This document shows positions 1 through 34,921 of a DNA stretch of 64,000 nt, piece by piece (within the stretch, counting starts at the first letter, position 1; every line of letters starts with the position of its first letter). The stretch lies in contig JAZDJQ010000012.1 of assembly GCA_043803765.1 (NCBI GenBank), forward strand, positions 1,165 to 65,164, given 5' to 3'. Source of the stretch: Candidatus Iainarchaeum sp. Lineage in GTDB: Archaea > Iainarchaeota > Iainarchaeia > Iainarchaeales > VGJJ01. Below the pieces are notes generated by a model. It was given only the letters and a program-made list of their open reading frames with translations. It had not been told where the DNA came from and did no database searches. The translations under genes and the position numbers were made by a program.

Positions 1-1234
1 GGTAAATCGCTATATGATTTCGGATGTATTGAGTGAGATTTCCAATTTCAAACCGGATGTGGTGGGCGTGGCCGCCATCACCTCGTTGGCGCATGTCACG
101 AAGGAGATTTGTGATGTGATCAAGAATCAGTGGCCGACTATCACTATTATTCTCGGGGGCCCCCATCCCACGGTGATGCCGGAAAAATTGGCGGAGGAAA
201 CGCGAGCAGATATTGTGATTGCTGGCGAAGCGGATGGAATTATTAGTGATGTTCTGCGGGACTTGCCCGGATACAAGGAAAAACGCGTGGTGCAGGCGGA
301 AAAAGTCATGAAGTTAGACACGCTTCCTTTTCCTGCACGACACTTAGTAGATATGAAAAAGTACACTTCTCTCCCTAACACATACAAGAAGGATCCACAC
401 ACGTTTCAAGTGATGACTTCACGCGGATGCCCTTTCACTTGTACATTTTGTCATGATGCTCATGGAATATTTCGCCAGCGGAGCGTGGAAAATGTGATTG
501 GGGAGTTAAAAGAGTTGAAGGAAAAATACAGGATTAGGGAAGTGGCTTTTTGGGACGATATTTTCACGCTGAACAAACAGTGGGTTTTTCAATTCTGTGA
601 AGCATTGGAACGCGAAAAACTTGAATTGACATGGTCGTGCTATTCACGGTTAGACCTAGTGGATGAACCTATTCTTCGTGCGATGAAAAAAGCGGGGTGT
701 TGGAACATATTCTTTGGTATCGAGGCGGGTTCCCAAGACCTATTAGACAACATCAAGAAGAAGATGACCGTACCGCAGTTGGCCGAGAAAGTGAAGCTCG
801 TCAAGAAATGTGGAATTGAGATTCGTGGAAGTTTCATGATTGGATTGCCCGGGGAAACCCCTGAGAAGGCCCGCCAAACCATTCAGTTTGCGATTGATTT
901 GGATCCGGATTATGCGCAGTTCACGATTACGACTCCGTATCCCGGCACCGAACTTTGGCAGACCGCGGAGCAGTTCGGTACGCTGGATCGAAATCAGAAT
1001 TTCACAAAGTGGAACGAGTGGCAGCCCGTGTTTATTCCCACTGGATACAAGAATGGGCAGGAATTGTTAGATATGCACAAGGAGGCCTTCCGTCGATTCT
1101 ACACGCGCCCCTCATACATGCTCCGTCGCGCGTTAAAAGTGCGTTCCTTGGATGAAGTGAAGCGTAACCTCAAGGGATTGCGCGTTGTACTTGCCATGAC
1201 GTCCGGAAAGAAAGAAAAAAAAGTCTCCGCGTAA
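1..1234 (+). CDS. Cobalamin (B12)-binding radical SAM protein (class B), 5' partial
   Basis: B12-binding-like N-terminal region (VVGVAAITS...IILGGPHPT) is followed by a radical SAM CxxxCxxC motif (CPFTCTFC). The frame stays open back to position 2 and the protein lacks about 60 aa compared with paralogs at 3435-4964 and 24406-25863, so the gene starts upstream of the window. Confidence 0.7.
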   Translation, partial: VNRYMISDVLSEISNFKPDVVGVAAITSLAHVTKEICDVIKNQWPTITIILGGPHPTVMPEKLAEETRADIVIAGEADGIISDVLRDLPGYKEKRVVQAEKVMKLDTLPFPARHLVDMKKYTSLPNTYKKDPHTFQVMTSRGCPFTCTFCHDAHGIFRQRSVENVIGELKELKEKYRIREVAFWDDIFTLNKQWVFQFCEALEREKLELTWSCYSRLDLVDEPILRAMKKAGCWNIFFGIEAGSQDLLDNIKKKMTVPQLAEKVKLVKKCGIEIRGSFMIGLPGETPEKARQTIQFAIDLDPDYAQFTITTPYPGTELWQTAEQFGTLDRNQNFTKWNEWQPVFIPTGYKNGQELLDMHKEAFRRFYTRPSYMLRRALKVRSLDEVKRNLKGLRVVLAMTSGKKEKKVSA

Positions 1235-1248
1235 TTCCGGTTTTCACA

Positions 1249-2382
1249 TTATTTCTTTAAAATCGAGTGATACCATTCGAGTTGTTTCTTCACGATGACC
1301 TTCCATGCAAAGGTCTTGGCGAAAGCATGCGCATTTTTTCTCTGAATAGACAATTGTGTGGCGGTCATGGATTCGATTTCCTTCCATATACCTAATACTG
1401 CTTTCGTGTCGGAGTAATCGACAAGAAAACCCCTTCCTTGGGTGATGAACGAGGAGAAGCTCGGTATCGTGTTCAGGCAGAGAATTGCCCCATTGGCCAT
1501 GGCCTCGATGGCGCTGATGCCAAACCCTTCATATTCGGATGCGGAAACGAAGACATTAGATTCTTTCAAGAGGGACTTCCTCTGCGCTTCAGTTACATTT
1601 CCAAGAAAGATGATCTTTCCCATTCCTCCCTTCCGGAGCACGCGCTCTTCCAATTCTTTCTGAATGCCCTCCCAATCCTGTCCGGCAATCAACAGTTTGG
1701 CTTTTGGGTCGTGCGCGGAGTACTCGACGAATGCATCGATGAGCCGATCCACGCGCTTGTTTCGGGATAATCGTCCCAAGAAGAGGAATGTATGCCGTTT
1801 CTTCATCGGTATAGTAGAAGGGATTAATTCTTCCTCAATCCCGTTTGGAAGGATGATGGTCTTCTCTTGGGGCAATTCACAGAAGTGCATCTTGTCGTTC
1901 TCGCTCACGTATAGAATTCCATCTATTGATTTCCAAGAGGAGGGAAGGACAAATACGGAGTAAATCCACTTCAACCACCCCCTTTTTCGTGTGTGGAAAA
2001 ATCCTCCGTGCGTGGTAAGAATGAGCTTGGCGGAGAGTTTTTTCTTGCGCTGCGCCAATGCATCCATCCATGCACCCACTCCATGAATGTGAACAATATC
2101 CTTGTCCTGAGCGAACTTCATTAACTCATCCGCTGGAGGGGCTCGGTAGAACGAGAACCCTTTCGGGGGGACACGATGGATGATCACGCCGTCCTTCTCT
2201 TCGCGTGCCGGGAGGATGTTCCCTTTCGTGCACGTGTTGAATACAAGAATTTCCACATGATCCCCTTGTCTCGCTTGCTCTCTCGCACTCTGCCAAATAA
2301 CATTCTCTATTCCTCCAATGCATGGAATCGTATGATTTCCCACATGCAGAATGCGAAGCTTTTTTTCATTAGTCATTCCCAC
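1249..2382 (-). CDS. GT4-family (GT-B fold) glycosyltransferase
   Basis: C-terminal nucleotide-sugar binding signature EYEGFGISAIEAMANG. N-terminal domain is a GT4-like Rossmann fold (ILHVGNHTIPCIGGIENV). Confidence 0.75.
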   Translation of the reverse strand: MGMTNEKKLRILHVGNHTIPCIGGIENVIWQSAREQARQGDHVEILVFNTCTKGNILPAREEKDGVIIHRVPPKGFSFYRAPPADELMKFAQDKDIVHIHGVGAWMDALAQRKKKLSAKLILTTHGGFFHTRKRGWLKWIYSVFVLPSSWKSIDGILYVSENDKMHFCELPQEKTIILPNGIEEELIPSTIPMKKRHTFLFLGRLSRNKRVDRLIDAFVEYSAHDPKAKLLIAGQDWEGIQKELEERVLRKGGMGKIIFLGNVTEAQRKSLLKESNVFVSASEYEGFGISAIEAMANGAILCLNTIPSFSSFITQGRGFLVDYSDTKAVLGIWKEIESMTATQLSIQRKNAHAFAKTFAWKVIVKKQLEWYHSILKK

Positions 2383-3434: not shown

Positions 3435-4964
3435 TCATACCACGGGGGGAATACGTTGATTCGTCTCTCCTAATGAGGATTTTTCATTCGTGTTGAATAA
3501 ATATTTGAAGAATGTTCTTCCGCTCTTTACAAGACGGGGGAACTCGGATGGAGTAGTAATTCCTTCCCATATTTTGGCGGCAATAAAGCTTGGGCGCATG
3601 TAAAATTCTCTTCGTGCGTCATCACACGCCTGCACTAATTCACTAGATGACAGTTTGTCCGTAGATACGATCGTATTATGCGTTCCATCTTCGAGGAGCC
3701 AGTTTTCCCAGTTCTCCGATTTGATGGTAAGAAAATTGTTGGTTTTGGCCCACTCGTATGCTTCCGTTCCCGGGTACACCATTATAGGAAAAAATTGCAC
3801 CGTGTCGGGATTTACTTTTTTTGCAAATGCAACCGTTTCCCTAATCGTATCTTTTGTTTCTCCTCGGTTTCCCATCATGAAGCATGCATGCACTAATACG
3901 CCTGCTTTCTTCGTGTCTTTGAAAAACTGTTCAATCTTCTGAATATTCGTTCCTTTCTTGATGTTGTTTAGAATATCTTGTGATGCGCTTTCAACGCCGA
4001 CGCATACTAATCGGCAGCCTGCTTTTTTCATTATTTTCAGTGTTTCTAAATCAACATCGGCGCGCGAGTTGACCGTCCACGTCAACTTCAAGCCGCGGTC
4101 AATAACTTCTTGGCAAATTTCCTTCACTCGATTTCGATCAACCGTAAAAGTATCGTCCTCAATCATAATATCCTTTACGTAGGGTAAATGACGTGCAATC
4201 CATTCAAACTCATCTACGATATTTTTTACACTGCGTGAACGGAAATTATGCCCGGTGAATGTTTGGGGCCAATCGCAAAACGTGCAGCGGAAGGGGCATC
4301 CTCGGCCGGTGATAATAGTAACTTCCGGCCATAGAACAGAAGGATAGAAATAATCCTTAATATTCAAGTGCTTCTCCCATATTTGAGTAACGAAAGGAAG
4401 CTTATCTAAATATTCAACTGGAACATCAGGTGCGTCCTCGTTTTGAATAATTTCCTTTTTTTCATTTCGATAGGTTATTCCTTTCATGTTGTGATACGAT
4501 GTTCCTTTTTCCAAATGATTCGCAAGTTCAACACTGGTTAAATCGTACTCTTTACGTAATACTAAATCAACGGCGGGTGCAAGGGTGAGCGTGTTCTCCG
4601 ATACCGCGGAAACGTGCGGTCCGACCATTGCGAGTACAACGGAAGGAAGAACATTCTTGATCGATGCAGCAACGTTCGCATCATTCACCACAGAACTTGT
4701 CACAGTGTGCATGATGACAAGTTGAGGGTTGAATTCTTTTACTCGTTGAACCACTTCCTCAATGGTCATTATTTTTTTGGATGCGGTCGCATCTACTAAC
4801 TGAACCGTGTGTCCATTCATTTCAAGTGAACCTGCCGCATATCCTAACCAAATAGGATAGTAAACACACCCCCCCTTTGATACGGCAGGAGAGCGAGAGC
4901 TCTTGCTGAACTGAGCAAAATAGGGTGGATTGAGCAGAAGAACGTTGATACCCATTTGAATCAC
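3435..4964 (-). CDS. Cobalamin-binding radical SAM protein (class B)
   Basis: N-terminal B12-binding-like domain, CPFRCTFC radical SAM cluster motif, 509 aa. Paralogous to 1-1234 and 24406-25863. Confidence 0.75.
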   Translation of the reverse strand: MIQMGINVLLLNPPYFAQFSKSSRSPAVSKGGCVYYPIWLGYAAGSLEMNGHTVQLVDATASKKIMTIEEVVQRVKEFNPQLVIMHTVTSSVVNDANVAASIKNVLPSVVLAMVGPHVSAVSENTLTLAPAVDLVLRKEYDLTSVELANHLEKGTSYHNMKGITYRNEKKEIIQNEDAPDVPVEYLDKLPFVTQIWEKHLNIKDYFYPSVLWPEVTIITGRGCPFRCTFCDWPQTFTGHNFRSRSVKNIVDEFEWIARHLPYVKDIMIEDDTFTVDRNRVKEICQEVIDRGLKLTWTVNSRADVDLETLKIMKKAGCRLVCVGVESASQDILNNIKKGTNIQKIEQFFKDTKKAGVLVHACFMMGNRGETKDTIRETVAFAKKVNPDTVQFFPIMVYPGTEAYEWAKTNNFLTIKSENWENWLLEDGTHNTIVSTDKLSSSELVQACDDARREFYMRPSFIAAKIWEGITTPSEFPRLVKSGRTFFKYLFNTNEKSSLGETNQRIPPVV

Positions 4965-5178: not shown

Positions 5179-5646
5179 TTGCCTATTGACACCGTATTGG
5201 ATGTAGGAGCGGGGAATGGAAAAATGATTGATTATTTTACTGAAATCGGTAGAAAAATAACAGCCGTCGACCTTTACCCTACACGAAAAGATATACAGAA
5301 AATGGACATTCTTGACAATAAAATCCAAAGCAATAGTTATGATCTGGTCTATTCCGCCCATCTCATCGAACATCTTCACGACCCTGAAAAATTTGTATAT
5401 GAATTGATGCGCATATCAAAAAAATATATATGCGTAGTGGCACCACTTCCCGGAAAGAGATTTTGGGATCAGCCCGACCATGTGCGACCATACACCCAAG
5501 AGACGCTTAAGCGGGTGTTCCATCTGAACAAATGGATTAAGTGCTTTGAAATGAATCTCCCCGGTGCGGAACCCATCGCCGTCTTATTGTTTGATAAGGC
5601 GGATTCACGGATTTCGACTCTTCCTTCATATCTAAAAAAAAATTAA
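5179..5646 (+). CDS. Small class I SAM-dependent methyltransferase
   Basis: Motif I LDVGAGNGKMIDYF, then an acidic loop and motif-II-like LVYSAHLIEHL. Start uncertain. Confidence 0.5.
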   Translation: MPIDTVLDVGAGNGKMIDYFTEIGRKITAVDLYPTRKDIQKMDILDNKIQSNSYDLVYSAHLIEHLHDPEKFVYELMRISKKYICVVAPLPGKRFWDQPDHVRPYTQETLKRVFHLNKWIKCFEMNLPGAEPIAVLLFDKADSRISTLPSYLKKN

Positions 5647-6233
5647 TGACTGCATATATGGGGAATCTTGCGACATATAATAATCATATCTTCACGCAAC
5701 GAATCGGGAATAAGGGAGTGAACAATTTTTCTCAATGGAAAGAACCATTTGTTTCGGGCCCCATCCGAACTCTCTTCCGTGTAGGGAAAAAATTCCATCT
5801 TTTGGATGGAGAAACCCTCATTGTCCAACAATTTGCATAATGAGTCCGGGTCGAAGAGGGAAAGGTGCAGGGGCATCTCATATGAATGAGTGATGCGGTT
5901 GAGCCATGATTTCTTGTTCGGGGTTGAAAGCGCCAGCACGCCATTGTGGTCTAACACCCTCCAGCATTCCTGGATGAACGCGCGGGGGTTTTCCACGTGT
6001 TCAAGCACTTCCCCTGCAAGAATGCTGTTGAAGACGTGATCCTTGAAGGGCATCATCTGTCCGTCCCCGATGACTTGATTGGTTCGCGTGTGGATCAGTT
6101 CGATGTCGAGGGAGATAATGTATTCCGCAGGGATCTTTTTGAGCAAGTCCTCATGCAGGGTGCCCGCGCTCCCTCCCACGTCTAATACCGTTCCATAGAT
6201 GGAGGATAGTAAGGATTGGATACGCGTGGTCAT
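5643..6233 (-). CDS. Class I SAM-dependent methyltransferase (Methyltransf_11-like)
   Basis: VLDVGGSAGTL motif I, ...ISLDIE..., VLEHVENPRAFIQECWRVLDHNGVLALSTPN, typical of type-11 MTases. Confidence 0.6.
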   Translation of the reverse strand: MTTRIQSLLSSIYGTVLDVGGSAGTLHEDLLKKIPAEYIISLDIELIHTRTNQVIGDGQMMPFKDHVFNSILAGEVLEHVENPRAFIQECWRVLDHNGVLALSTPNKKSWLNRITHSYEMPLHLSLFDPDSLCKLLDNEGFSIQKMEFFPYTEESSDGARNKWFFPLRKIVHSLIPDSLREDMIIICRKIPHICSH

Positions 6234-6246: not shown

Positions 6247-7011
6247 TTATTTATGGACGCCCTTCCATTCTTTTACGATTCGATTCGCGCGTGCAAGCTC
6301 ATCCACGCTTCCCGCATCCAGCCACTCTCCGCATATTTTGCTTGCCGCGAGGGTTCCGCGCAGGATATACGTGTTGTGAATATCCGTGATCTCCAATTCC
6401 CCTCGTGCGCTAGGTTTGAGGGTACGGATGATATCGAAAACGCTGGGTTTGAAGAAATATACGCCGATGGATGCCCATTGGGAAGGAGGGTTTTCTGGTT
6501 TCTCTATCAAATGCGTGACTTTTTCTCCATCCAGTACAGCGACCCCCATTTTTTTGGCCTCTTCCATAGTAGTCTCATACAATAGGATGCGTGCATCCTC
6601 AGTTCCGTTCTCGAATGCATCCGCGTAGGATTGAATAGAATCGGAGAGGATGTTATCCCCATTGATGGAAACGAATTTGCTATTTCCCACAAAGTCTTCG
6701 GCCAATGCGATGGCTTGAGGGAGTCCGCCAGCCTCGTCTTGTACGCGATACGTGAACTTAACGCCAAATTCTTTTCCGCTTCCCATGAGTTTGAAGATAT
6801 TTCCTGCGTGTTCCGTTCCTGTAATGATAAGAATGTCAGTGATGCCTGCTTCCTTGAGTGTTTGCAAGGGATAAAATATCATGGGTTTATCGTACACCGG
6901 AAGCAAGTGTTTGTTAGTGGAATTCGTGAGCGGGCGTAGGCGTGTTCCGTTTCCTCCCGCGAGAATGATTCCTTTCATTTTTTCACCTTTTGGAAATAAT
7001 CCTGATACCAT
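6247..7011 (-). CDS. Sugar-1-phosphate nucleotidyltransferase (RmlA / G1P-thymidylyltransferase-like, short form)
   Basis: N-terminal MKGIILAGGNGTRLRPLT signature of sugar nucleotidyltransferases, 254 aa. Confidence 0.75.
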   Translation of the reverse strand: MVSGLFPKGEKMKGIILAGGNGTRLRPLTNSTNKHLLPVYDKPMIFYPLQTLKEAGITDILIITGTEHAGNIFKLMGSGKEFGVKFTYRVQDEAGGLPQAIALAEDFVGNSKFVSINGDNILSDSIQSYADAFENGTEDARILLYETTMEEAKKMGVAVLDGEKVTHLIEKPENPPSQWASIGVYFFKPSVFDIIRTLKPSARGELEITDIHNTYILRGTLAASKICGEWLDAGSVDELARANRIVKEWKGVHK

Positions 7012-7967
7012 TTCTCCGTGTCATGCAGGCCTTCATGAATATCCATGCGTGCTTTCCAATTCAATACCTCTTCAGTCACTCGCGTATCGATGACGGGATG
7101 GTCTCGCTCATGCATGGAATGAGTTTCTTCCCATTCCACTGGAATATTCTTCCCCGATTCTTCTTGGATAATGTCTACCATCTCACGGATGGAGTAGGAT
7201 TTTCCTGTCGCGAGGGTGAGGGATTTTCCTTTGACTTGAGAAGAGGGGATTTTTTCATACATCGCGAGGAGTCCCGATACTGTGTCCGAGATGTGCATGA
7301 AGTCCCGCTTCAATTGTCCGTCTCCTCGCAGTTGGACTTTTTGATCGACGAATACTCCTTTCATGATTCTTGGGATGAGACGGGAGAAATTGTAGTCGTT
7401 GGATCCGTACACATTAGTGCTGCGCGCGATGGTTCCATTGATTCCATAGGTGTGGAAATAGCTCGCAGAGAGCACTTCCGCAGCCCACTTACTAGCATCA
7501 TAAGGGTGTAATTGGATGAGTTCTGGATTCCCGTGGTTGGAGGAGGGGGATTGGAACACGCGCACGGAACTCATGATCAATACCTGAGTATCCTTTTTTT
7601 GTTTGCGGAGGGTTTCCATAAGATTGAGGGTTCCATTCACGTTCACGTCCCATGTCTCGGTGGAATGTTGAGTCGACTTCCACGTGTCGGATTGGGAAGC
7701 TAGGTGGAATACCCCTTCAAATTCGTTCCCGGCGAACAGATCAGTTAGAAATCCAGCGTCGAGGATGTCTCCGGCATGGAGAGGAACGCGATCCAATCCG
7801 GGGATTCCTTTCAAATAGGGAGTTTGTCCGGGTGTGCGGGATATTCCATGGACTTCAAATCCTTTGTCCAACAATGTGCGTGCAAGGTGGGATCCGATGA
7901 ATCCATTGATTCCAGTCACCAATACATTGCGTGAATTTCCTTTGCTCATACGTTTTTCCCATCCCAA
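6975..7967 (-). CDS. NAD-dependent epimerase/dehydratase (SDR). N-terminus resembles GDP-mannose 4,6-dehydratase
   Basis: VLVTGINGFIGSHLARTLLDKGFEVHGI Rossmann motif, YDASK catalytic YxxxK. Overlaps the upstream nucleotidyltransferase by 37 nt. Confidence 0.65.
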   Translation of the reverse strand: MGWEKRMSKGNSRNVLVTGINGFIGSHLARTLLDKGFEVHGISRTPGQTPYLKGIPGLDRVPLHAGDILDAGFLTDLFAGNEFEGVFHLASQSDTWKSTQHSTETWDVNVNGTLNLMETLRKQKKDTQVLIMSSVRVFQSPSSNHGNPELIQLHPYDASKWAAEVLSASYFHTYGINGTIARSTNVYGSNDYNFSRLIPRIMKGVFVDQKVQLRGDGQLKRDFMHISDTVSGLLAMYEKIPSSQVKGKSLTLATGKSYSIREMVDIIQEESGKNIPVEWEETHSMHERDHPVIDTRVTEEVLNWKARMDIHEGLHDTEKWYQDYFQKVKK

Positions 7968-9173: not shown

Positions 9174-9175
9174 TC

Positions 9176-13165: not shown

Positions 13166-13209
13166 GGGTTGAGTAATGTACCAGAAATTTTAATCAACCT
13201 TTATAATGT

Positions 13210-15149: not shown

Positions 15150-15150
15150 T

Positions 15151-22153: not shown

Positions 22154-22154
22154 C

Positions 22155-26817: not shown

Positions 26818-27530
26818 TTAATTACCCTCATAGCCAGATAGTTTCGGGAATCTAGTTCCTTAACAGTATATCCGAGACCCTTTAATGTCTTTTCGCACTC
26901 CAACTTCCGCTCTTCGGTGAGGGCTTCAAAGATAACATCCGGGCAATCTTTTTGGAGGGTGTGTAGGGCGCCCAGCAGGACGCGATTTTCGCTTCCTTCG
27001 CAGTCAATCTTGATGAGGGACACCTTCCCTAGAAGTTTTACTTCATCGAGTCGTTTTACATGAGCCGTGTCTTTTTGACGGAGGTCCAATCCAAGCATTC
27101 CTTTCGCGACATCCACTTGCGCGGGATCAATAGTCGTGGCTCCACTATATTGGGTATCCCGGTAGAGCGGAAAGAATCCTTCCCGATCCGAAAGGCCATA
27201 TTCATGAAGCGTGAATTGGTTCGCATATTTGGAATGTGTGAGATTCTTTCGTAGTAAGGCCAGAATGCGCGGGTTCACGTCGAAACCATGCGCGTGTCCA
27301 CCGGTTTGGTGAATAAAATAAATGCTAACTAATCCGTAGTGGCACCCAACATCCACGAGCAATCCTCCTTGGTATTTGGAAAAATCCACATCTTTTACCC
27401 ACATGGGCACGTGAAGATGCAAGGTCTCCCATTTTATTGGAAGTGTTATTTCTTCGCGGATATCCTTGATAGGTTGGAGAATCCGATCCCAGAGATTCAT
27501 TTCGATCCTCCTGTGGTGGATGGACGCCAA
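26814..27530 (-). CDS. FkbM-family SAM-dependent methyltransferase
   Basis: VDVGCHYGLVS motif I and IKIDCEGSE (the FkbM-type I-K-I-D-x-E-G-x-E signature). Confidence 0.6.
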   Translation of the reverse strand: MASIHHRRIEMNLWDRILQPIKDIREEITLPIKWETLHLHVPMWVKDVDFSKYQGGLLVDVGCHYGLVSIYFIHQTGGHAHGFDVNPRILALLRKNLTHSKYANQFTLHEYGLSDREGFFPLYRDTQYSGATTIDPAQVDVAKGMLGLDLRQKDTAHVKRLDEVKLLGKVSLIKIDCEGSENRVLLGALHTLQKDCPDVIFEALTEERKLECEKTLKGLGYTVKELDSRNYLAMRVIK

Positions 27531-28222
27531 AAATAATAGTGCTTGTAGTCTACTCCTTCGTGGGAGTATCCTTCTCGCGTGAATCGGTCGATGGTTTCTC
27601 TCTTCTCATCTTCTCCATATATCTCAGGATGGAGCTCTAAGAGGAATCGCGGATTGTGTTTGGTCCATTTAGAATCGGTAAATACTTGTTCCGCAAGTAT
27701 CTTTTCAGCTCCTTCAATATCAACAAAATAGAAAGAGGGAATCATCTTGGACTGTGCATGAATCCAATGCAAATCGTTTTTTTCCGAAAGAGGAGCGTGA
27801 ATCACTTGAAATCTTTCGAGAAGAATGGGGTTGAATTCCCGGAGCATGTGGAGAATAGTCACATAGTGCAGGTCCATTTCCACTCCCACAACTCTCCCAT
27901 CTTTCCCTGCAAGGTCAGCCATCTGGAGGGCAAATTCTCCATAGTTGGATCCCAAGTCCAATATCATTTCACCTGGGCGAATAACGGCATCCAATTTCGC
28001 AATGATAGCGGGCTCCCATGCATCGCGGGATCGTAGAAATGCGCGCCACCCTTCGCGGGGCTCAATGAATAATTGGCCATGTTTCACAGGAAAAAAACCC
28101 GCACTTTTTCGGGTCCACCACGGGGATTGGATGAGGAAAGAGTACCAGAGAGCCTTCCCATGAATCTTTTTCCACAAGGAAATAGCGGGAGAATGATTCA
28201 CCACCGGATGATCGTGATCCAT
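27497..28222 (-). CDS. FkbM-family SAM-dependent methyltransferase
   Basis: ILDLGSNYGEFALQ motif I and YFVDIEGAE (FkbM-like). Overlaps the neighbouring gene by 34 nt. Confidence 0.55.
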   Translation of the reverse strand: MDHDHPVVNHSPAISLWKKIHGKALWYSFLIQSPWWTRKSAGFFPVKHGQLFIEPREGWRAFLRSRDAWEPAIIAKLDAVIRPGEMILDLGSNYGEFALQMADLAGKDGRVVGVEMDLHYVTILHMLREFNPILLERFQVIHAPLSEKNDLHWIHAQSKMIPSFYFVDIEGAEKILAEQVFTDSKWTKHNPRFLLELHPEIYGEDEKRETIDRFTREGYSHEGVDYKHYYFWRPSTTGGSK

Positions 28223-28226
28223 ATTG

Positions 28227-29552
28227 TCATGCCCCCTTTGTCATACGAGAAAAGGAGTGGAGAATCTTTTTTAACAACTCTCGCTCGGATGGGGTGACCC
28301 ATTCAAAGTGGAATCGGTATCCGATTCGCCGAATAGCATAGATGATGAGCAAAATGGACAATGTCGCATACACGAACACATTGGAAGCCGCGGCTACCTG
28401 AACACCCTGCGTAGCTGCCCATGCATACATGACCAGTGCGATTCCCGCTGAGGGAAGGAACACTTCGAGAAATAATTGTTTGAGGTTTCCTCTCGAATAC
28501 GCATAGCCATGAAGGGGTCTCACGGCATTGAAGAGGGATACTCCCCCCACGAGGAGGAGGCCCAATCCATACACTTCAGCATGATTGGTGGGAGCGACGA
28601 AGGAAAGGACGTAGTCCCCCACCAAATAGTATCCTATAAGCTGCACGGTACTCACAAGGATGGAATATTTGATGATAGCATTCACGATGAAAAGATCATT
28701 CTCCTTTCCAGTAGTTCGCGCCAAGGCCACGATGCACATTTTTTGTAGGATTTGTGGAATGAAAATGAATACCCCTGCAAGGGTGAGAGCAATAGTATAG
28801 TTCCCCACCGCAAACGCGGTGGCGAAAAATCCGAGGAAGAAAATGTCCGCGCGATAAATCAATTGGGCCACCGATCCGATAAAGTGGTTCCAGAGGATAG
28901 AGGTGTTGAACACGGATTTGAAATCCTGCTTCAATACACTGGGAGAAAGCAGCAAAGGAAAGGGGAATGTTTTCAGGAAGCGATACACCCATGCCATGGA
29001 GAACAGTCCCGTGAGGACGGCGAGCAGGAGGAGATAAACTCCCAATTCCCGCTCGACGTATACGATTCCAAGTCCGCCAAGGAAGAGGAGTTGATAGGCG
29101 AGGTTCATCTTCAATATGTCTTTCTGCTTGAATTCTACGAAAAAGAATTCTTGGATGGATGCTTGAAGCGTGTTGAGATGATACACGAGTGCAGTGCCAA
29201 TGAGATAGATAAGCAGAAAATCCCCGCGAGAGGAATACAGCAGCCATCCCCCAACGAGCATGAGAGAAAAAACCAACATCGTGCGGACTGCCCAGAACGA
29301 TAGAAAACTTTCAGCGAATTTTTTTGGGTTTTTTTTGAATGAAACATAGTCTCGAAAGAGCAGCACTTCCGGGGTAATCATGAGAAAGGCAAACATGGCG
29401 ATAAATCCCCCGGTGATTCCAATGATGGCAATATCCTCACGTGGAAGAATACGACTTAGGAGAAAAAAGGAAAAGAGCCCCATAATCATAGACAATGTTT
29501 GGTTTGCCGTGCTCATGAGAGCTTGCTTGAATAGTTGTTCCTTGAGGACCAT
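28227..29552 (-). CDS. Wzx-like oligosaccharide flippase (MOP superfamily polysaccharide biosynthesis protein)
   Basis: 441 aa and about 12-14 TM helices through its whole length. Sits inside a glycan cluster next to the core-building GTs. Confidence 0.6.
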   Translation of the reverse strand: MVLKEQLFKQALMSTANQTLSMIMGLFSFFLLSRILPREDIAIIGITGGFIAMFAFLMITPEVLLFRDYVSFKKNPKKFAESFLSFWAVRTMLVFSLMLVGGWLLYSSRGDFLLIYLIGTALVYHLNTLQASIQEFFFVEFKQKDILKMNLAYQLLFLGGLGIVYVERELGVYLLLLAVLTGLFSMAWVYRFLKTFPFPLLLSPSVLKQDFKSVFNTSILWNHFIGSVAQLIYRADIFFLGFFATAFAVGNYTIALTLAGVFIFIPQILQKMCIVALARTTGKENDLFIVNAIIKYSILVSTVQLIGYYLVGDYVLSFVAPTNHAEVYGLGLLLVGGVSLFNAVRPLHGYAYSRGNLKQLFLEVFLPSAGIALVMYAWAATQGVQVAAASNVFVYATLSILLIIYAIRRIGYRFHFEWVTPSERELLKKILHSFSRMTKGA

Positions 29553-29561: not shown

Positions 29562-31088
29562 TCACATCAACCAATGGCCATGTTTGAAGCTTCCGGCCAT
29601 GCGGGCAATCTTGACAGCGAAGGCATATCCCAATCCGACGAACACGAGAAAAGGAAAATAAATGAAGGATTTGCTCTCGAAAAACTTGAGACCGCGAGGA
29701 GAGGATAGTTCGAGCTCTCTTTCGGAATCCTTCCACAACCCCGTGACAACCTTGAAGTCTTCAACCGGATCTACAAAAAACTTCCATCTTACGTGGAGGA
29801 ATTCATCGCACAATTTAGTGGGGTGTTTCTTGTGCAATAGAACATCATTCATATGATACTTGAGTCGCTGGTGCGTGTATTTCAATATCGCCCGGACGCC
29901 CTTCGGGGATACCAGCGTGCGATCCTCCGTATACATTTTTGATGCGGTAGGTATTCGGACATATTCAAATCCTAATTCCATGATTCGAAAGGAAAGATCA
30001 GTATCCTCTCGGTAATAAAAAAAATCTTCATCGTATCCGCCAAGGTGATCCAATATCGTCTTTCGGAATCCCGTGCTGGTTCCACCATAATGTCCATATG
30101 CCGAAACCGCTCCTACGCATGGGGAATCAAATCCATTCACCAGTGTTTGCAACCAGTTTTTTTGGGGAACGCAGTCATGATCCATATTGATGACTACCTC
30201 ATGCTTCGCGGCATTGATCCCTGCGTTCCTCGCCTTGCATACGCCGGAGCGGGGTAAAAAAATGAGGGAGATGCGGGGATTTTTTTGGAAGTTTTTTTTC
30301 AACAAGAATGGAGTTTTCCCATCATAGCTTCCATCATCCACCACGATTATTTCGTATTTCCCCTTGAAGTCCTGACGGAGCATTCCATTCACGGCCTTGA
30401 TGAGAGGCTCTCCTCCATTAAGGGTGGCCACGACAATACTGGCCGTTTGAGGGGGCCAAGTCTTTTTCGTTTCGTTTTTTTTCAATCCCACTCCATGTTC
30501 CAAGGCAAGTCGGGTCAGAATATGGGAGATGTATCCATCTTCAACGTCTCCGCGCGCGGCGACCTTTATTTGAGCCTCATGGAGGGTGGTTTTCCATTCC
30601 TTGAGAGACTCTACTACCACCCCATCGCCGCGCGAGGCAATGGTATGGGCGAGTTCAAGCTGATGGTCATCCGTATGTTCTCCGTTCTCCCTGTGTCGGG
30701 GCATGATGATAAGGGGTTTCCCCATTTGCAGTGCGGTGCCAATGTTTCCCTCTCCAGCATGCGTGACAAATAGGCGGCACTCGGAGAGGTTTTTTTCAAA
30801 CGTGGGAATGCTCATGAATGAGGTGACTTTCATTTTGGGGTGAGTGAATGGTGTGTTCCCAGACTGCACCACGACTTCTTCCTGGATGATTTTTTGATCG
30901 ACAAGCATCGCGATTTCATTCAACAATCGGTAGAAGGGTTGAGGATGGGTTCCCACGGAGACAAAAATCATGATTGGTTCCTCGCAAAGATGGATCCGGC
31001 ATACACGCCGGAGGGGTAATATTTTTTGAGGCTTGGCCACTGGTATAGTACGCGATCGGCAAACAGGGAAATGATTCTCCCGCTCCAA
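29562..31088 (-). CDS. Bifunctional Alg13-like (GT28 C-terminal domain) :: GT2 glycosyltransferase fusion
   Basis: Alg13/MurG-C-like MIFVSVGT...THAGEGNIGTALQMGKPLIIMPR, followed after a linker by GT2 IVVATLN...IIVVDDGSYDG...DHDCVP. The probable start is the MIFVSVGT methionine near 30974; the first 38 codons of the ORF would otherwise overlap the Alg14-like gene. Confidence 0.65.
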   Translation of the reverse strand: MERENHFPVCRSRTIPVAKPQKILPLRRVCRIHLCEEPIMIFVSVGTHPQPFYRLLNEIAMLVDQKIIQEEVVVQSGNTPFTHPKMKVTSFMSIPTFEKNLSECRLFVTHAGEGNIGTALQMGKPLIIMPRHRENGEHTDDHQLELAHTIASRGDGVVVESLKEWKTTLHEAQIKVAARGDVEDGYISHILTRLALEHGVGLKKNETKKTWPPQTASIVVATLNGGEPLIKAVNGMLRQDFKGKYEIIVVDDGSYDGKTPFLLKKNFQKNPRISLIFLPRSGVCKARNAGINAAKHEVVINMDHDCVPQKNWLQTLVNGFDSPCVGAVSAYGHYGGTSTGFRKTILDHLGGYDEDFFYYREDTDLSFRIMELGFEYVRIPTASKMYTEDRTLVSPKGVRAILKYTHQRLKYHMNDVLLHKKHPTKLCDEFLHVRWKFFVDPVEDFKVVTGLWKDSERELELSSPRGLKFFESKSFIYFPFLVFVGLGYAFAVKIARMAGSFKHGHWLM

Positions 31089-31426
31089 CTCGGAGTGTAG
31101 GGTCGGCAGTAGCTCTCAATGAATATGACAGGAACTCCCCGCAGCTTGGCGGCAAGGCATACGGGGACCGTCACATCGGCTCCGGTAGACACTACCATGC
31201 GAGGCTTGACCTCATCCACAATGGAAAGGGCACGGATGAATGCACGAATGGTAGTGATGGGATTCCGCGCAGGGCGAGTGATGAAATACACGGTTTCTTT
31301 TTCAGCCAATGAGATGGTGTCCGGTCGTTCGAACGTGATGAAGCAGTGGGGTGCTTTTTCATAGAAGGATTTCAATTGCCTCATCTCAGTGAGGTGCCCC
31401 CCGGCGGAGCAGGTAAGCATAATCAT
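30968..31426 (-). CDS. Alg14-like glycosyltransferase membrane-anchor/acceptor subunit
   Basis: MIMLTCSAGGHLTEM...VVSTGADVTVPVCLAAKLRGVPVIFIESYCRP matches the Alg14 family pattern. 152 aa, immediately upstream of the Alg13-like fusion. Confidence 0.65.
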   Translation of the reverse strand: MIMLTCSAGGHLTEMRQLKSFYEKAPHCFITFERPDTISLAEKETVYFITRPARNPITTIRAFIRALSIVDEVKPRMVVSTGADVTVPVCLAAKLRGVPVIFIESYCRPYTPSWSGRIISLFADRVLYQWPSLKKYYPSGVYAGSIFARNQS

Positions 31427-31429: not shown

Positions 31430-32542
31430 TCATGTACCCCCATACAATGCAATGGCTTGCGTATGGTTGAGCCAAAAAAGAAGGAGGGTTATAACGATGA
31501 CCACGACTTGCATCCCAAGGATAATCAACACCACCTGCTTCTCGGTGAATCGTCCCATGCGCATGACGACATGAGTCAGACTGCCTATTTTCTCAGGGCT
31601 CTTGAGGATGCCATCCGATTGGATAATGCCAAAGCTCTGAGCCTGCATTTTCGTGCGACCCTTGAGGATAAGCTCGACGAAATAGAGGCCAAAAATCATG
31701 ATTCCTATTTTTTCCATGTTCCCAATCACGCACGCGGAGGCAATAGCGGCGCCCATCATGAGGGTGAATGAGTCTCCGGGAAATATTTTAGCCGGGGTCC
31801 AATTGTAGACCAAGAATGCGAGAACGGCTCCAATGAGCCCGACCATGATAATGGCGACCTCAATGCGACCCAATACCAATGCGACAATTAGCACGGCGAA
31901 GGCATTAAGCAGTCCCATCCCTCCTTCCAATCCATTCAATCCAGCCAGCATATTGGTGGCGTTGCTTGCTCCCGTGACCGCAATAGGAACCAACATGAGT
32001 GCGTATATAATTCCAAAGTTCATGAATCCCAAAAAGGGAATATCCACTCCCGTGTTCCCAATCGTTTGCGGTAATACCATTAGGGGAAATGCGGCAAAAA
32101 TGGGGAACAGGGCGTGCTGGTATTGCCGTATCCCTTTCGTCCACCCAATCACATCATCCACCATTCCAATGAGCCCAACCATAATGATGGTGAGCAAGGC
32201 TGCGAGCACAGACAACAAGTCGATATCCTGGAAAAGGTCAAAGTATGAATGAAATGCGAGCGCAATCATAATGGAGAAGACGAAAGAAAGAAGAACGATA
32301 ACCCCGCCCATCCCTGCTACGACATGACTTCCTTCCATTTTGTTGAAGTCATTCCACACGATTTTCTGCAGGTGCATCCTCCTGATAAAAAAGGGAAAAG
32401 TAGAATGAGCCACAATGAAGGAAATTGCGGCAATCGAGAGAAAATTGAATGGATAGATGTTCATCCATGCGAATGACAATGCGAGAAAAAAGAAAACGAG
32501 AATGGGAATTTTTTTCATCATGGGAATCATCCACTCATACAA
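31430..32542 (-). CDS. aglH: UDP-GlcNAc:polyprenol-phosphate GlcNAc-1-phosphate transferase (MraY/WecA/GPT family, archaeal AglH-like)
   Basis: Ten or more TM helices, VDDV (DDxxD-like) motif and ATNMLAGLNGLEGGMG (NxxNxxDGxDGL-type) motif. Confidence 0.75.
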   Translation of the reverse strand: MYEWMIPMMKKIPILVFFFLALSFAWMNIYPFNFLSIAAISFIVAHSTFPFFIRRMHLQKIVWNDFNKMEGSHVVAGMGGVIVLLSFVFSIMIALAFHSYFDLFQDIDLLSVLAALLTIIMVGLIGMVDDVIGWTKGIRQYQHALFPIFAAFPLMVLPQTIGNTGVDIPFLGFMNFGIIYALMLVPIAVTGASNATNMLAGLNGLEGGMGLLNAFAVLIVALVLGRIEVAIIMVGLIGAVLAFLVYNWTPAKIFPGDSFTLMMGAAIASACVIGNMEKIGIMIFGLYFVELILKGRTKMQAQSFGIIQSDGILKSPEKIGSLTHVVMRMGRFTEKQVVLIILGMQVVVIVITLLLFWLNHTQAIALYGGT

Positions 32543-32605
32543 GAGGAAGAATATTCAAAAACGATTCTCGGTGGCTATTAAAGCGCACGTGGTGCAACTC
32601 TCGAA

Positions 32606-34921
32606 TCACTCGGTGTTGGTGTCCAAGATGTTGGCATCGGCAACACCTGCGTTCGCATCCACAATAATCGTATCACCTTCCACACTCCCCCCGTCCCGTA
32701 GAAGAATAGCTTTCGGATTAAACCCCCAGATGCGAACCCCCCCAGTATTCGAGTAGAGAGCAGGGAACGTCTCTTCTAAAGTTGGATCATCGAACCATAA
32801 TCGCACGAGCATGGTAGAATTGGATTTCGTCGTGAACACATACAAGCGGCTCATGGCCTTGTCCCGATATAAGTGAAGCGGGGAACCTCCTTGAAGCAGG
32901 GTGGGTTGTCCATTCCAGACGGTAGAAAATGCTTCCATCTGGGCAGGAGTAAAAGTGTTGTCGCCACACTTGTACGAGACTTCCTTCGTGAGGGTTGTCT
33001 CTTCTCTCGAACAGAAAAGCATGGATCCTCCGAATTCCATAATTCGAGGATCATTAGCCATGATCACATTATATGCATAGAATCCAAGATTGGTCTGCTT
33101 GGTCAAAAGGTCATCCCCAAAAATGAGATGGGTCGATCCATACTTTGTCAACAACCCCACAGCCTCATCCATGTTATCCGTAATAAGAAATAGAGCCACG
33201 TCAGCGGATGCTTTCAAATCAGTATTCCGATTGTCGACAATCACTCCCCGCTGAGCCAGAAATGTAATCCAATGCCCCTCATCCCACCAGTTGAAGAATT
33301 TAGCATCCGGGGGGAGATGTTCATCGGACCAAAATAGGGCAGTCTTCCATCCCCAGGAGGACTCGATGTTGGGAGTATTCTCTTCCACAAAAAAGATTCC
33401 GGCCGCCAATCCGAAGAGCAATGAAAAACCAATTGCCGCAATGATAATCTTCTGAGTCCCAACGCTCCGTTTCTCCATGGAACGGTGGGTTAGATGCAAT
33501 ACGACTGCTCCCATGAGAGCGAGAGGCAATCCCCAATAAAACGTGAATTTAAGTTTTCCCCACGCGAGAATGAACGCAATGACAATCCACACGAGCGGGA
33601 TGACCAACTGGTGGTGGGATTGGGGCCGCTTCCATAACAGATAGACGCAGGAGGGAATCCCCAACAAAGCAAAAACGACGAGCATACTATACTTGTTCCC
33701 GAAATAATTGCTCCCCTGACTCTCTTCACCAATAGTGGCTCCCAGCACTCCTCCTCCTGTGAGAGTATAGTTGAATAGTACAACAAAAATAGGGATGAAC
33801 AGCAATAGCAGGATTGACAATACATAGAGTCCATTCACTGCTTTCTGCCACCTATCATCCTTGCGTGAGAACCGCTCGCAAACGGCGAAGAAACCCACGG
33901 CTGCAAGTATTAAGATGATAGTGAAATGCCACGAGAGTTCAATCCCAATGAGGCGCAGTCCCAGATTGGATGCGATTTGGTCCATCCAGAAAGTTCCCGT
34001 TTGTATGGTAGAGATGATCACGAACGGAATGAATGCGGCCAGCCATACGAGACCGAAATGCCTCGCTTCTGCGTGTTCATTGCGTGCGAGGAAAGAGAGA
34101 AACCCCACTGCTCCAATCCCCATGAGAATCGGAACTAATTGATTCGAACCGGGCCAGGACAATACCATCCCCCCAAAACATATTCCTGCGGCCACGCCGA
34201 ATCCGATACGACGCTTCAATTTCGTTTCATTATACGCGGCTTTGACGAAGAAGAACAATCCAAAGACCATCCATAGGAAGCCGAACGAGTCGTCCTCGAA
34301 GAATCCCCCCATCGTGCGATAAACAAAAGCGGGAACAACCGCGGCAAGAATCCCTGCGAATAGTCCCGTCGACCGTTCATATTTTCCATGAAACAATTCC
34401 TTTCCAAGAAAATACATCCCTACACACGCCAATGCTCCATATAATGCAGGGAGAATTTTTACCCACAGAATCCAATTCTCGAGTACATATTTTCCATTGA
34501 GTGTAAAAATCTTGTAAATCGCCGCAGAGACATACCAGAAGAAGGAAGGAGTATTGGTGAGCGTGGCCGCAGCCGCATTCTGGTAATAGGCGAGCGGATC
34601 AAATGCAGGCGCGGGCAACCCTTGGAGGATGTAGGACACCATGCGCGCATGCCAGTATGAGTCAAACTCAAAAAAGAGTTCAAACCGCATCAAGTGGGCG
34701 CGGACAATGAATCCTAAAACGAAAACAAGTCCAACAAACAAACTTTCCTTGGAAAGAATAATGCGTTTCAGACGCTCAACAATTGTATTAGGAGAATGAT
34801 GCGCAGAAGAAGCCGTTTTTTCTTCCATTAGAGGAATTCCCTCAGACGCGTGAGCAGTGAGAGTAGCATGCGCAGCGTGTTCTGCTTCCTGCACGTTTTC
34901 AAGCGAGGGTTCCATAATCAA
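32606..34921 (-). CDS. aglB: Oligosaccharyltransferase AglB/STT3
   Basis: 771 aa. N-terminal 13-TM region, then a soluble C-terminal domain with the WWDxG catalytic motif (WWDEGHW). Confidence 0.75.
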   Translation of the reverse strand: MIMEPSLENVQEAEHAAHATLTAHASEGIPLMEEKTASSAHHSPNTIVERLKRIILSKESLFVGLVFVLGFIVRAHLMRFELFFEFDSYWHARMVSYILQGLPAPAFDPLAYYQNAAAATLTNTPSFFWYVSAAIYKIFTLNGKYVLENWILWVKILPALYGALACVGMYFLGKELFHGKYERSTGLFAGILAAVVPAFVYRTMGGFFEDDSFGFLWMVFGLFFFVKAAYNETKLKRRIGFGVAAGICFGGMVLSWPGSNQLVPILMGIGAVGFLSFLARNEHAEARHFGLVWLAAFIPFVIISTIQTGTFWMDQIASNLGLRLIGIELSWHFTIILILAAVGFFAVCERFSRKDDRWQKAVNGLYVLSILLLLFIPIFVVLFNYTLTGGGVLGATIGEESQGSNYFGNKYSMLVVFALLGIPSCVYLLWKRPQSHHQLVIPLVWIVIAFILAWGKLKFTFYWGLPLALMGAVVLHLTHRSMEKRSVGTQKIIIAAIGFSLLFGLAAGIFFVEENTPNIESSWGWKTALFWSDEHLPPDAKFFNWWDEGHWITFLAQRGVIVDNRNTDLKASADVALFLITDNMDEAVGLLTKYGSTHLIFGDDLLTKQTNLGFYAYNVIMANDPRIMEFGGSMLFCSREETTLTKEVSYKCGDNTFTPAQMEAFSTVWNGQPTLLQGGSPLHLYRDKAMSRLYVFTTKSNSTMLVRLWFDDPTLEETFPALYSNTGGVRIWGFNPKAILLRDGGSVEGDTIIVDANAGVADANILDTNTE

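Follow-up and report, generated by a model that had tools for sequence, protein, structure and literature searches.

An archaeal N-glycosylation gene cluster augmented by radical S-adenosylmethionine enzymes, including a sister family of HpnJ

RESULTS

A contiguous N-glycosylation cluster with four radical SAM genes

We analyzed a stretch of 64,000 nucleotides (the window) from contig JAZDJQ010000012.1 of Candidatus Iainarchaeum sp., in which positions 1 to 34,921 are occupied by a glycosylation gene cluster that includes genes for radical S-adenosylmethionine (SAM) enzymes. The host is a genome-reduced archaeon of the Iainarchaeia (Diapherotrites, DPANN), as an initial annotation made from the letters of the DNA had supposed; the nearest complete genome, Candidatus Iainarchaeum CP064981.1, has a size of 1.05 Mb. 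The open reading frame (ORF) listing and Pfam and NCBIfam scans revealed 32 back-to-back genes that occupy about 99% of this 34.9-kb region; neighboring genes are spaced by -121 to +214 bp, and the GC content is uniform. The genes encode the oligosaccharyltransferase AglB, an AglH-type GlcNAc-1-P transferase (GPT), a split Alg14/Alg13 pair, about 10 glycosyltransferases, RmlA and RmlB, five short-chain dehydrogenases/reductases (SDRs), five methyltransferases, three B12-domain radical SAM proteins (rSAM1, rSAM2, and rSAM3), and one SPASM-type radical SAM protein (Table 1).

The cluster is also contiguous elsewhere. In CP064981.1, a cluster of about 40 kb with near-identical gene content runs from AglB at about 497 kb to past rSAM1 at about 531 kb, and the gene order of the window was found again in independent metagenome-assembled genomes (MAGs) (for example, locus L007) or as a more compact version. 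rSAM2 and the SPASM-type protein are 100% identical to NCBI proteins of a MAG assigned to "Candidatus Diapherotrites archaeon." The order in close relatives is AglB-AglH-Alg14-Alg13/GT2-SDR_a-RmlA-MT_b-rSAM2-GT2_a-GT4_a-unk441-rSAM3, within which SDR_a-RmlA-MT_b-rSAM2 is a conserved run. Because the order recurs in independent MAGs and in the complete genome, the cluster is real and not split, and an assembly chimera was ruled out. Downstream of AglB lie a 5S rRNA gene (positions 35080 to 35196) and then housekeeping genes (TATA-binding protein [TBP], KsgA, FtsZ, L1/L10, and GluRS); AglB therefore marks the right-hand boundary. The left boundary lies outside the window, and in relatives the cluster extends past rSAM1. 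The greater part of a lineage-conserved N-glycosylation super-cluster is contained in positions 1 to 34,921. The glycosylation super-cluster of about 35 kb proposed in the initial annotation was thus upheld, without the large non-glycan insertion that was named there as a possible objection, for none was present among the 32 genes. Its assignment to protein glycosylation was likewise borne out, since the radical SAM genes are physically linked to AglB-AglH-Alg14-Alg13 in relatives.

The core genes are those of an Agl-type cluster: AglB carries the WWDxG motif, and an initiating GPT and an Alg13/14-type enzyme for the second sugar are present. The fusion of an Alg13-like domain to a GT2 domain is kept across the Iainarchaeia, with Alg14 as a separate upstream gene. 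As listed, the TTG start of the fusion gene overlaps Alg14 by 121 nt, and therefore the true start is probably further downstream. AglH, AglB, the RmlA-like protein, RmlB, the SDRs, and the GT2/GT4 enzymes had all been recognized in the initial annotation, which did not list Alg14 or the Alg13-GT2 fusion; the Wzx flippase and UDP-galactopyranose mutase (UGM)-like protein on the same list were not confirmed (see below).

TABLE 1 Genes and gene products in the N-glycosylation cluster
Feature	Position	Strand	Supporting evidence
rSAM1, B12-binding-domain radical SAM	1..1234	+	B12-binding 57.1 bits, Radical_SAM 87.1 bits; CPFTCTFC
GT4_a glycosyltransferase	1249..2382	-	Pfam Glycos_transf_1 + Glyco_transf_4
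GT2_a, GT2 glycosyltransferase, about three C-terminal transmembrane (TM) helices	2373..3395	-	Glycos_transf_2 129 bits
rSAM2, B12-domain radical SAM, sister family of HpnJ (by sequence)	3435..4964	-	B12-binding 57.4 bits; Radical_SAM; TIGR03471
Short class I methyltransferase, 155 aa	5179..5646	+	Methyltransf_11 48 bits; kept at 82% in locus L006, 62% in L026
MT_b class I methyltransferase	5643..6233	-	Methyltransf_23 + Methyltransf_11
RmlA-like sugar-1-phosphate nucleotidyltransferase	6247..7011	-	NTP_transferase 193 bits; rmlA_long 246 bits, cut-off 320
SDR_a, 4,6-dehydratase-like	6975..7967	-	135-138 bits on CDP-/dTDP-glucose 4,6-dehydratase models
GT4_b, SDR_b, SDR_c, SDR_d, GT4_c	within 8106..17513		Pfam/NCBIfam scans
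RmlB	9176..10159		Equivalog 465.7 bits, cut-off 365.1
AglJ-like Dol-P-hexose-type GT2	10150..11247		AglJ model 142 bits, cut-off 325
LPG_synthase_TM "flippase-like" 8-TM protein	12164..13165		Pfam/NCBIfam, TM prediction
Flavin adenine dinucleotide (FAD) amine-oxidase-family protein	16206..17513		Pfam Amino_oxidase 72.7 bits
LA_3751-like putative membrane glycosyltransferase, 9-TM	17643..19121		Pfam/NCBIfam, TM prediction
GT4_d, GT4_e	within 17643..24393		Pfam/NCBIfam scans
MT_c class I methyltransferase	19126..19875		Pfam scan
Alpha/alpha-toroid protein, soluble, 474 aa	22155..23579	-	Weak matches: pectate lyase 2, prenyltransferase, squalene-hopene cyclase C-terminal domain
Conserved protein of no assigned family, 295 aa	23506..24393		42%-identical homologue in CP064981.1
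rSAM3, B12-domain radical SAM	24406..25863	-	B12-binding 70.7 bits, Radical_SAM 82.8 bits
SPASM/twitch-type radical SAM	25870..26817	-	Radical_SAM 65 bits; SPASM 40.7 bits, cut-off 21.5
FkbM methyltransferase	26814..27530	-	TIGR01444 fkbM_fam 69.8 bits, cut-off 37.7
Weakly FkbM-like methyltransferase	27497..28222	-	24.8 bits, below cut-off 37.7
11-TM membrane protein, candidate flippase or polymerase	28227..29552	-	TM count; adjoins rSAM3 or GT4_a in DPANN relatives
Alg13-like domain fused to GT2, C-terminal TM helix	29562..31088	-	Glyco_tran_28_C 41.9 bits + Glycos_transf_2
Alg14-like protein	30968..31426	-	Alg14 64.5 bits
AglH-type GPT	31430..32542	-	PF00953 Glycos_transf_4 116.5 bits
AglB oligosaccharyltransferase	32606..34921	-	STT3 64 bits, archaeo_STT3 122 bits; WWDEG at residue 545; 13 TM segments

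rSAM2 belongs to a sister family of HpnJ

The initial annotation had described rSAM1, rSAM2, and rSAM3 as class B (B12-binding) radical SAM proteins. This was confirmed at the domain level by the Pfam matches (cut-offs, 32.1 bits for B12-binding [PF02310] and 29.5 bits for Radical_SAM), with Radical_SAM scores of 83 to 87 bits, and by the CxxxCxxC motifs CPFTCTFC, CPFRCTFC, and CPEKCIFC, respectively. The window edge truncates rSAM1 on the left, so that about 75 to 100 N-terminal residues are missing. The possibility that these proteins lack the B12-binding Rossmann domain and resemble HemN (coproporphyrinogen oxidase) was dismissed, since the domain was recognized by Pfam in all three and in the AlphaFold model of rSAM2, and HemN-type models scored at most 38 bits. 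The pairwise identity among the three proteins is only 27 to 31%; they are therefore ancient paralogues of three separate cross-domain families, not recent duplicates.

When rSAM2 was compared with 18,950 NCBIfam models, the HpnJ model (TIGR03471) gave by far the highest score, 433.9 bits, with an alignment that spans model positions 3 to 469 of 472. The next-best models were BchE (184 bits), ApyD (146 bits), and PhpK, a phosphorus methylase family (142 bits), while the best C-methylase models, HpnR and a C-methyltransferase of ribosomally synthesized and posttranslationally modified peptides (RiPPs), reached 96 to 97 bits. All 23 diverse members of the rSAM2 family also matched HpnJ best, though none attained its cut-off (best E value, 3e-140). 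Identity to rSAM2 was 44 to 100% within its own family. In a tblastn search of annotated plasmids, it was 44% for the Lawsonia member, 33 to 36% for proteins annotated as HpnJ by PGAP, and 25% for BchE.

A neighbor-joining (NJ) tree of 28 sequences (466 columns, 100 bootstraps) united the rSAM2 family with HpnJ at 96% bootstrap support, with the rSAM2 family alone at 79% and HpnJ alone at 100%; rSAM1, rSAM3, and BchE branched outside this clade. Of 75 residues invariant in the rSAM2 family, 67% are retained in HpnJ, compared with 45 to 51% in BchE, rSAM3, and a RiPP radical SAM protein. The AlphaFold 2 (AF2) model of rSAM2 (pLDDT, 85; pTM, 0.86) consists of an N-terminal Rossmann domain followed by the radical SAM barrel, and Foldseek matched it to the Protein Data Bank (PDB) structures of AprD4, TsrM, OxsB, CysS, TokK, and MgmA rather than to HemN-like enzymes. 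The genomic context does not place rSAM2 within HpnJ, for no hpnI, hpnK, or squalene-hopene cyclase (SHC) gene was found in the cluster. As judged from these sequence comparisons, the family of rSAM2 is sister to HpnJ, and rSAM2 itself falls outside HpnJ.

rSAM1 and rSAM3 belong to orphan families, and for these two methylation is no less likely than any other reaction. The best NCBIfam scores of rSAM1 were 204 bits for HpnJ, 172 for ApyD, and 165 for BchE, all far under the cut-offs; it shares 82% identity with a protein of 460 aa from CP064981.1 and forms a separate clade in the NJ tree. rSAM3, with best scores of 153 bits for HpnJ and 117 for PhpK, has homologues of 65 to 93% identity in DPANN and of 40 to 45% in Elusimicrobiota, Dehalococcoidales, and Halobacteriota, and its family, which occurs in DPANN and several bacterial phyla, forms its own clade at 100% bootstrap. 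Among annotated plasmids, no characterized relative of rSAM1 or rSAM3 exceeded 33% identity. For the radical SAM proteins of the cluster, a role as RiPP maturases was rejected, as the cluster shows no peptide, PqqD, or protease neighbors, unlike a Clostridium radical SAM locus.

The initial annotation regarded three B12-domain radical SAM proteins in one glycan locus as unusual. They are less unusual than this suggests, because two or three recur in clusters of Iainarchaeia, Aenigmarchaeota, and Elusimicrobiota: CP064981.1 has two together with one SPASM-type radical SAM protein, an Aenigmarchaeota contig has two, and further Iainarchaeia loci (L012 and L079) carry extra paralogues. An Elusimicrobiota contig (L004, ERZ27247322 k141_242683) holds a polysaccharide cluster with three B12-domain radical SAM genes, a MurJ/Wzx-type flippase, a PMT_2 GT-C enzyme, GT4s, and RmlA-like and SDR genes, and represents a bacterial counterpart of the archaeal arrangement.

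rSAM2 and GT2_a form a cassette found in archaea and bacteria

A survey of GTDB genomes detected the rSAM2 family at no fewer than 433 loci, and 80 of these loci were retrieved. The archaeal hosts are Iainarchaeia, Micrarchaeota, and Hydrothermarchaeota. The bacterial hosts, at least eight lineages in all, include Desulfobacteria, Anaerolineae/Chloroflexota, Planctomycetota (including an anammox genome), Thermodesulfovibrionales, Fibrobacteres, Chitinivibrionales, and "Stahlbacteria." No viral carriage of the family was found.

In 44 of the 47 evaluable archaeal loci, a GT2_a homologue lies no more than 2.5 kb downstream of the rSAM2 gene and on its strand; in 27 of the 44, it follows rSAM2 immediately. 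Downstream of GT2_a, 31 of the 47 have a GT4_a homologue, which in Iainarchaeia usually takes the third place behind rSAM2 and GT2_a; MT_b stands beside rSAM2 in 23. By tblastn, a GT2_a homologue is immediately downstream in at least 11 of 23 bacterial loci. A Fibrobacteres locus that was scored negative has a divergent GT2 gene that overlaps the radical SAM stop codon and adjoins a GT9 heptosyltransferase gene. Wzy_C and GT4 genes precede the radical SAM-GT2 pair in the anammox locus, and on a Desulfobacterales chromosome a Bac_transf gene comes after the pair. These bacterial loci lie in O-antigen or lipopolysaccharide (LPS)-type contexts. In the Iainarchaeia, the cassette is embedded in the AglB-AglH-Alg14-Alg13 order, and it is therefore tied to the dolichol-linked N-glycan pathway.

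The layout of a radical SAM gene beside a GT2 gene is the same in bona fide hopanoid loci, which read hpnJ-hpnI-LPG_synthase_TM-hpnK or hpnI-hpnJ-hpnK-LPG_synthase_TM. Two hopanoid loci (L089, 6001 to 10591, and L091, 1692 to 6334) also hold an LPG_synthase_TM-domain gene, as does the cluster; the two kinds of protein had no detectable BLASTP similarity, and the cluster protein was rejected as a counterpart of the hopanoid-locus one.

The only cultivable organism with the rSAM2 family among the loci examined is the pig pathogen Lawsonia intracellularis, whose 27-kb plasmid 1 carries the gene (NC_008012.1, 8094 to 25518; L088). The surrounding cluster contains five class I methyltransferase genes, a second radical SAM gene, and GT2, GalE, SIS, HAD-IIIA, and GHMP-kinase genes. 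The methyltransferase and GT2 proteins next to the Lawsonia homologue were compared with MT_b and GT2_a and rejected as orthologues.

A SPASM/twitch-type radical SAM gene is paired with an FkbM gene

The initial annotation listed a SPASM-type radical SAM protein next to rSAM3. The Pfam SPASM match was confirmed, but the full SPASM cysteine set was not. In the C-terminal domain, only C224, C242, C284, and C287 are family conserved, and the seven-cysteine motif for two auxiliary Fe-S clusters is absent; with only four conserved cysteines, the domain is twitch-like. The top PDB folds for the AF2 model (pLDDT, 89.5) were BlsE (E value, 2e-15) and BtrN (E value, 2e-11). The protein belongs to a small family that hardly occurs outside Iainarchaeia. 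Its gene overlaps the FkbM gene by 4 nt, and the pair is kept in CP064981.1. The BlsE/BtrN-like fold together with the conserved overlap suggests that a sugar oxidation or decarboxylation may be coupled to O-methylation.

The three class I methyltransferases and one of the two FkbM methyltransferases (the product of 26814 to 27530) in the initial annotation were verified, while the second FkbM candidate scored below the family cut-off.

Other cluster members and neighboring genes

No ORF matched Polysacc_synt or MurJ, and the Wzx flippase of the initial annotation was not confirmed, as no ORF matches the Wzx/MOP family. The only candidates are the 11-TM protein and the LPG_synthase_TM "flippase-like" protein. 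The 11-TM protein had no Pfam match (E ≤ 1), no PDB profile match, and no hhalign match to MurJ/Polysacc_synt_3 or Wzy_C proteins, in a profile slightly weakened by the inclusion of one non-homologous Elusimicrobiota protein. Its family adjoins rSAM3 or GT4_a in loci L003, L006, L008, L013 to L015, and L086, and its N-terminal consensus appears Wzx-like by eye only. The supposed UGM-like gene was reassigned to the flavin amine-oxidase family, since its product scored 39 bits on TIGR00031 (cut-off, 303.75) over the N-terminal FAD-binding part only. The alpha/alpha-toroid gene is kept beside rSAM3 or the SPASM-type gene in relatives.

Beyond the cluster, an extra GT4 glycosyltransferase gene (42505 to 43584, plus strand) lies 7.5 kb outside, amid ribosomal-protein and FtsZ genes. 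The TBP ORF (35611 to 36561, minus strand) is 316 aa as listed, whereas archaeal TBPs are usually about 180 aa, and probably has an upstream alternative start or an N-terminal extension. A 2410-aa protein (53150 to 60382, minus strand) that combines an N-terminal TM segment with CarboxypepD_reg and Big_1 immunoglobulin-like domains is probably a surface protein of giant size; its 19 N-x-S/T sequons, versus about 17 expected from composition, show no sequon enrichment.

Cobalamin

The initial annotation had implied a cobalamin requirement. Judging from their domains, cobalamin dependence of the three B12-domain radical SAM proteins is plausible. AprD4, which has the same B12-like domain and works with the partner reductase AprD3 without cobalamin, shows that the domain can exist without the cofactor. 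The 29 kb of the window outside the cluster hold no genes for cobalamin transport, salvage, or synthesis. A comparative study reports enzymes of cofactor biosynthesis, including cobalamin genes, in only about one-fourth of Diapherotrites genomes (PMC8407392).

DISCUSSION

A possible pathway for radical tailoring of N-glycans

The gene content of the cluster is consistent with a pathway in which lipid-linked N-glycan precursors are tailored by radical chemistry and in which the rSAM2-GT2_a cassette would probably carry out a rearrangement other than methylation. We hold this reading tentatively and would place it somewhat short of an even chance. In such a pathway, the AglH-type phosphotransferase and the split Alg14/Alg13 enzyme would start the dolichol-linked glycan, and the glycosyltransferases together with the RmlA/RmlB/SDR set would supply and attach sugars. 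The four radical SAM enzymes, which are cytoplasmic, would act on the cytoplasmic side prior to flipping, with either nucleotide sugars or the lipid-linked intermediate as their substrate. The SPASM/twitch and FkbM proteins may perform a BlsE/BtrN-type sugar oxidation or decarboxylation and then an O-methylation, and rSAM1 and rSAM3 may perform further radical tailoring, for which C-methylation and deoxygenation are both possible. AglB would finally transfer the finished glycan to protein.

Within this pathway, rSAM2 and the membrane-anchored GT2_a would work as a two-gene cassette in the manner of HpnJ and HpnI. GT2_a would place a hexose or hexosamine on the lipid-linked acceptor at the membrane, and the soluble rSAM2 would abstract a hydrogen atom from the transferred sugar and rearrange the sugar without methylation, the most likely outcome being a ring contraction to a carbocyclic, ether-linked residue. 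The proposal is drawn from the analogy with HpnJ and Cds. HpnJ is required for conversion of bacteriohopanetetrol-glucosamine to the cyclitol ether, the archaeal radical SAM enzyme Cds is required for calditol, and both have been proposed to catalyze radical sugar ring contractions (PMC13459092). The few non-methylating cobalamin-dependent radical SAM enzymes (OxsB, HpnJ, BchE, PbsB, and ladderane synthase) all form or rearrange rings (PMC13598231). The most specific version, that the cassette is a cross-domain counterpart of HpnJ-HpnI and turns a newly transferred hexose of a polyprenol-linked glycan into an ether-linked carbocycle, a cyclitol or carbasugar, is doubtful, and we consider it rather unlikely as it stands.

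Several observations weigh against a non-methylating rearrangement by the cassette. rSAM2 falls below the HpnJ equivalog cut-off of 577.6 bits, and 23 of the residues invariant in its family, including C317, C361, H117, and H429, differ consistently from HpnJ. GT2_a was rejected as an HpnI orthologue (its scores were 19 bits with the HpnI model and 29 bits in BLASTP), and the Pfam scan found no HpnK (YdjC) deacetylase in the cluster. The Lawsonia homologue sits in a methyltransferase-rich cluster. To our knowledge, in vitro reconstitution has been achieved neither for HpnJ nor for any enzyme of the rSAM2 family, and the reference chemistry is therefore itself a genetic inference, and we know of no product, substrate, or glycan structure from any Iainarchaeon. 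Finally, the phylogenetic placement of the three proteins that the initial annotation proposed was achieved in part: rSAM2 groups with HpnJ, and rSAM1 and rSAM3 form their own clades, in a tree that does not include the characterized C-methylases GenK, Fom3, and TokK, which were compared via NCBIfam and PDB scores only.

Other explanations

The initial annotation predicted C-methylated sugars from the presence of class B enzymes. On such a view, all three B12-domain proteins would be GenK/GenD1/Fom3-type cobalamin-dependent C-methyltransferases acting on unactivated carbons of N-glycan sugars, with O-methyl groups added by the class I and FkbM enzymes. The majority of characterized cobalamin-dependent radical SAM enzymes are indeed methylases (PMC13598231), a B12-binding domain is present in all three proteins, rSAM1 and rSAM3 have no better assignment, TsrM, CysS, TokK, and MgmA are among the Foldseek matches of rSAM2, and the company of five methyltransferase genes in Lawsonia fits as well. 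The methylase models also register these proteins, with 117 to 142 bits for PhpK, 85 to 110 for the methyl-coenzyme M reductase (MCR) glutamine C-methyltransferase, 58 to 97 for HpnR, 41 to 86 for KedN5, and 34 to 50 for TsrM. However, none of the three proteins reaches the cut-off of any methylase family, the PhpK, HpnR, KedN5, and TsrM scores being far under the cut-offs and lower than those for HpnJ, and none has a cobalamin-dependent C-methyltransferase family as its best match; the top model for each is that of HpnJ and not of a methylase. For rSAM2 the HpnJ score is about threefold or more above that of every methylase model (434 versus at most 142 bits), and the HpnJ clade has the bootstrap support given above. 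The prediction of C-methylated sugars from class B membership is thus not backed by these comparisons, with rSAM2 a sister of HpnJ and rSAM1 and rSAM3 lacking a characterized close relative, and C-methylation by all three enzymes seems to us unlikely, although it deserves serious consideration. The broader expectation of the initial annotation, exotic sugar tailoring in an N-glycosylation cluster, is upheld, but for rSAM2, the enzyme resolved best, the case for C-methylation is weak.

Deoxygenation offers a different route to an altered sugar, if some or all of the B12-domain proteins are AprD4-like, cobalamin-independent sugar 1,2-diol dehydratases that act with one of the five SDRs to give deoxy sugars, the B12 domain being a relic. 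AprD4 is the best PDB match of rSAM2 both by sequence (79 bits) and by fold (E value, 1e-24; TMq, 0.69) and the second-best match of rSAM3, the NCBIfam AprD4 model gave 117, 92, and 57 bits for rSAM1, rSAM2, and rSAM3, and the cluster is rich in SDRs. Yet for every paralogue these scores are well under those for HpnJ, the identity in the structural alignment is only 21 to 22%, and deoxygenation at C6 is already covered by the RmlB-type 4,6-dehydratases. The lack of a DxHxxG motif in the B12-domain proteins would fit an AprD4-like enzyme but is uninformative, as class B radical SAM enzymes generally lack it. We regard this explanation as quite improbable. It is highly improbable, too, that the radical SAM genes serve another envelope component encoded beside aglB, such as glycolipid or lipoglycan head groups or an exopolysaccharide. 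HpnJ and Cds do act on lipid head groups (PMC13459092), bacterial rSAM2-GT2 cassettes occur without AglB beside Wzy_C, GT9, or Bac_transf genes, and a 35-kb cluster with about 10 glycosyltransferases, including a Dol-P-hexose-type GT2, an LPG_synthase_TM protein, and a GT-C-like membrane protein, could feed several products. Against this, no more than a few genes separate the cassette from AglB-AglH-Alg14-Alg13 in Iainarchaeia, across many independent genomes, and no lipid-biosynthesis gene is present in the cluster. DPANN archaea usually lack lipid synthesis of their own, which also counts against this explanation.

Implications

rSAM2 defines a large family that has no characterized member and is the nearest relative of HpnJ. 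The link to HpnJ means that the surface sugars may be odder than "methylated." If the carbocyclic residue is indeed formed, Iainarchaeial N-glycans would hold a glycosidase- and acid-resistant pseudo-sugar that is new to protein-linked and surface glycans, and the same pseudo-sugar would occur in the O-antigens or LPS of Desulfobacteria, Anaerolineae, anammox Planctomycetota, Fibrobacteres, and Lawsonia. The reaction of rSAM2, once worked out, would provide a soluble, heterologously testable model for HpnJ/Cds-type chemistry and a new sugar-tailoring reaction for surface glycans, including those of L. intracellularis. It would also show whether genome-reduced DPANN cells need scavenged cobalamin for their surface coat, which bears on host interaction.

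Comparison with known systems

Among known systems, HpnJ-HpnI (TIGR03471 and TIGR03472) is closest to rSAM2-GT2_a. Both radical SAM proteins combine a B12-binding domain with a radical SAM core, align over the full length at 33 to 36% identity, and form sister clades, and in both systems the gene adjoins that of a membrane GT2 with an LPG_synthase_TM-domain gene in the neighborhood. They differ in that rSAM2 remains under the HpnJ cut-off, its GT2 partner is not HpnI, and HpnK, SHC, and HpnH are absent; the context of HpnJ is hopanoid, whereas that of rSAM2 is AglB/AglH/Alg13-14 or bacterial O-antigen/LPS, with hosts that include archaea. The nearest archaeal analogy, by proposed chemistry alone, is Cds of Sulfolobus acidocaldarius, which is proposed to contract a glycosidically attached hexose to an ether-linked carbocycle, the cyclopentyl calditol, on glycerol dialkyl glycerol tetraether (GDGT) lipids (PMC13459092). 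The target of Cds is a membrane-lipid head group in acidophiles, in contrast to the protein N-glycosylation context of a DPANN archaeon here.

AprD4 (PDB 6fd2), which catalyzes C3' deoxygenation in apramycin biosynthesis, resembles rSAM2 in its B12-like N-terminal domain and acts, as is proposed for rSAM2, on a sugar ring; it is set apart by its low identity and by AprD4-model scores (57 to 117 bits) that fall short of those for HpnJ. BlsE and BtrN are twitch radical SAM enzymes that modify carbohydrates. They share with the SPASM-type protein a cysteine set of the single auxiliary-cluster type, but the identity is only 14 to 20%, and Pfam calls the domain of the window protein SPASM.

A literature search retrieved no paper that links radical SAM enzymes with AglB clusters or with glycosylation in DPANN or Diapherotrites; the single match for AglB together with radical SAM enzymes was an unrelated paper on plant-pathogen genomics. 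Published N-glycan pathways of archaea rely on glycosyltransferases, SDRs, aminotransferases, and ordinary methyltransferases. With known archaeal Agl clusters the locus shares AglB with its WWDxG motif, the GPT, the split Alg14/Alg13, an AglJ-like GT2, and the clustering around aglB; an EpsE/EpsF-type split of Alg14/Alg13 has been reported for DPANN (PMC8993221). It differs from those clusters in the Alg13-GT2 fusion and the radical SAM enzymes, and no recognizable Wzx/AglR flippase was found in it. The locus is an Agl-type cluster augmented by radical SAM modules, up to four radical SAM proteins in all, among them a cross-domain cassette of an HpnJ sister and a GT2.

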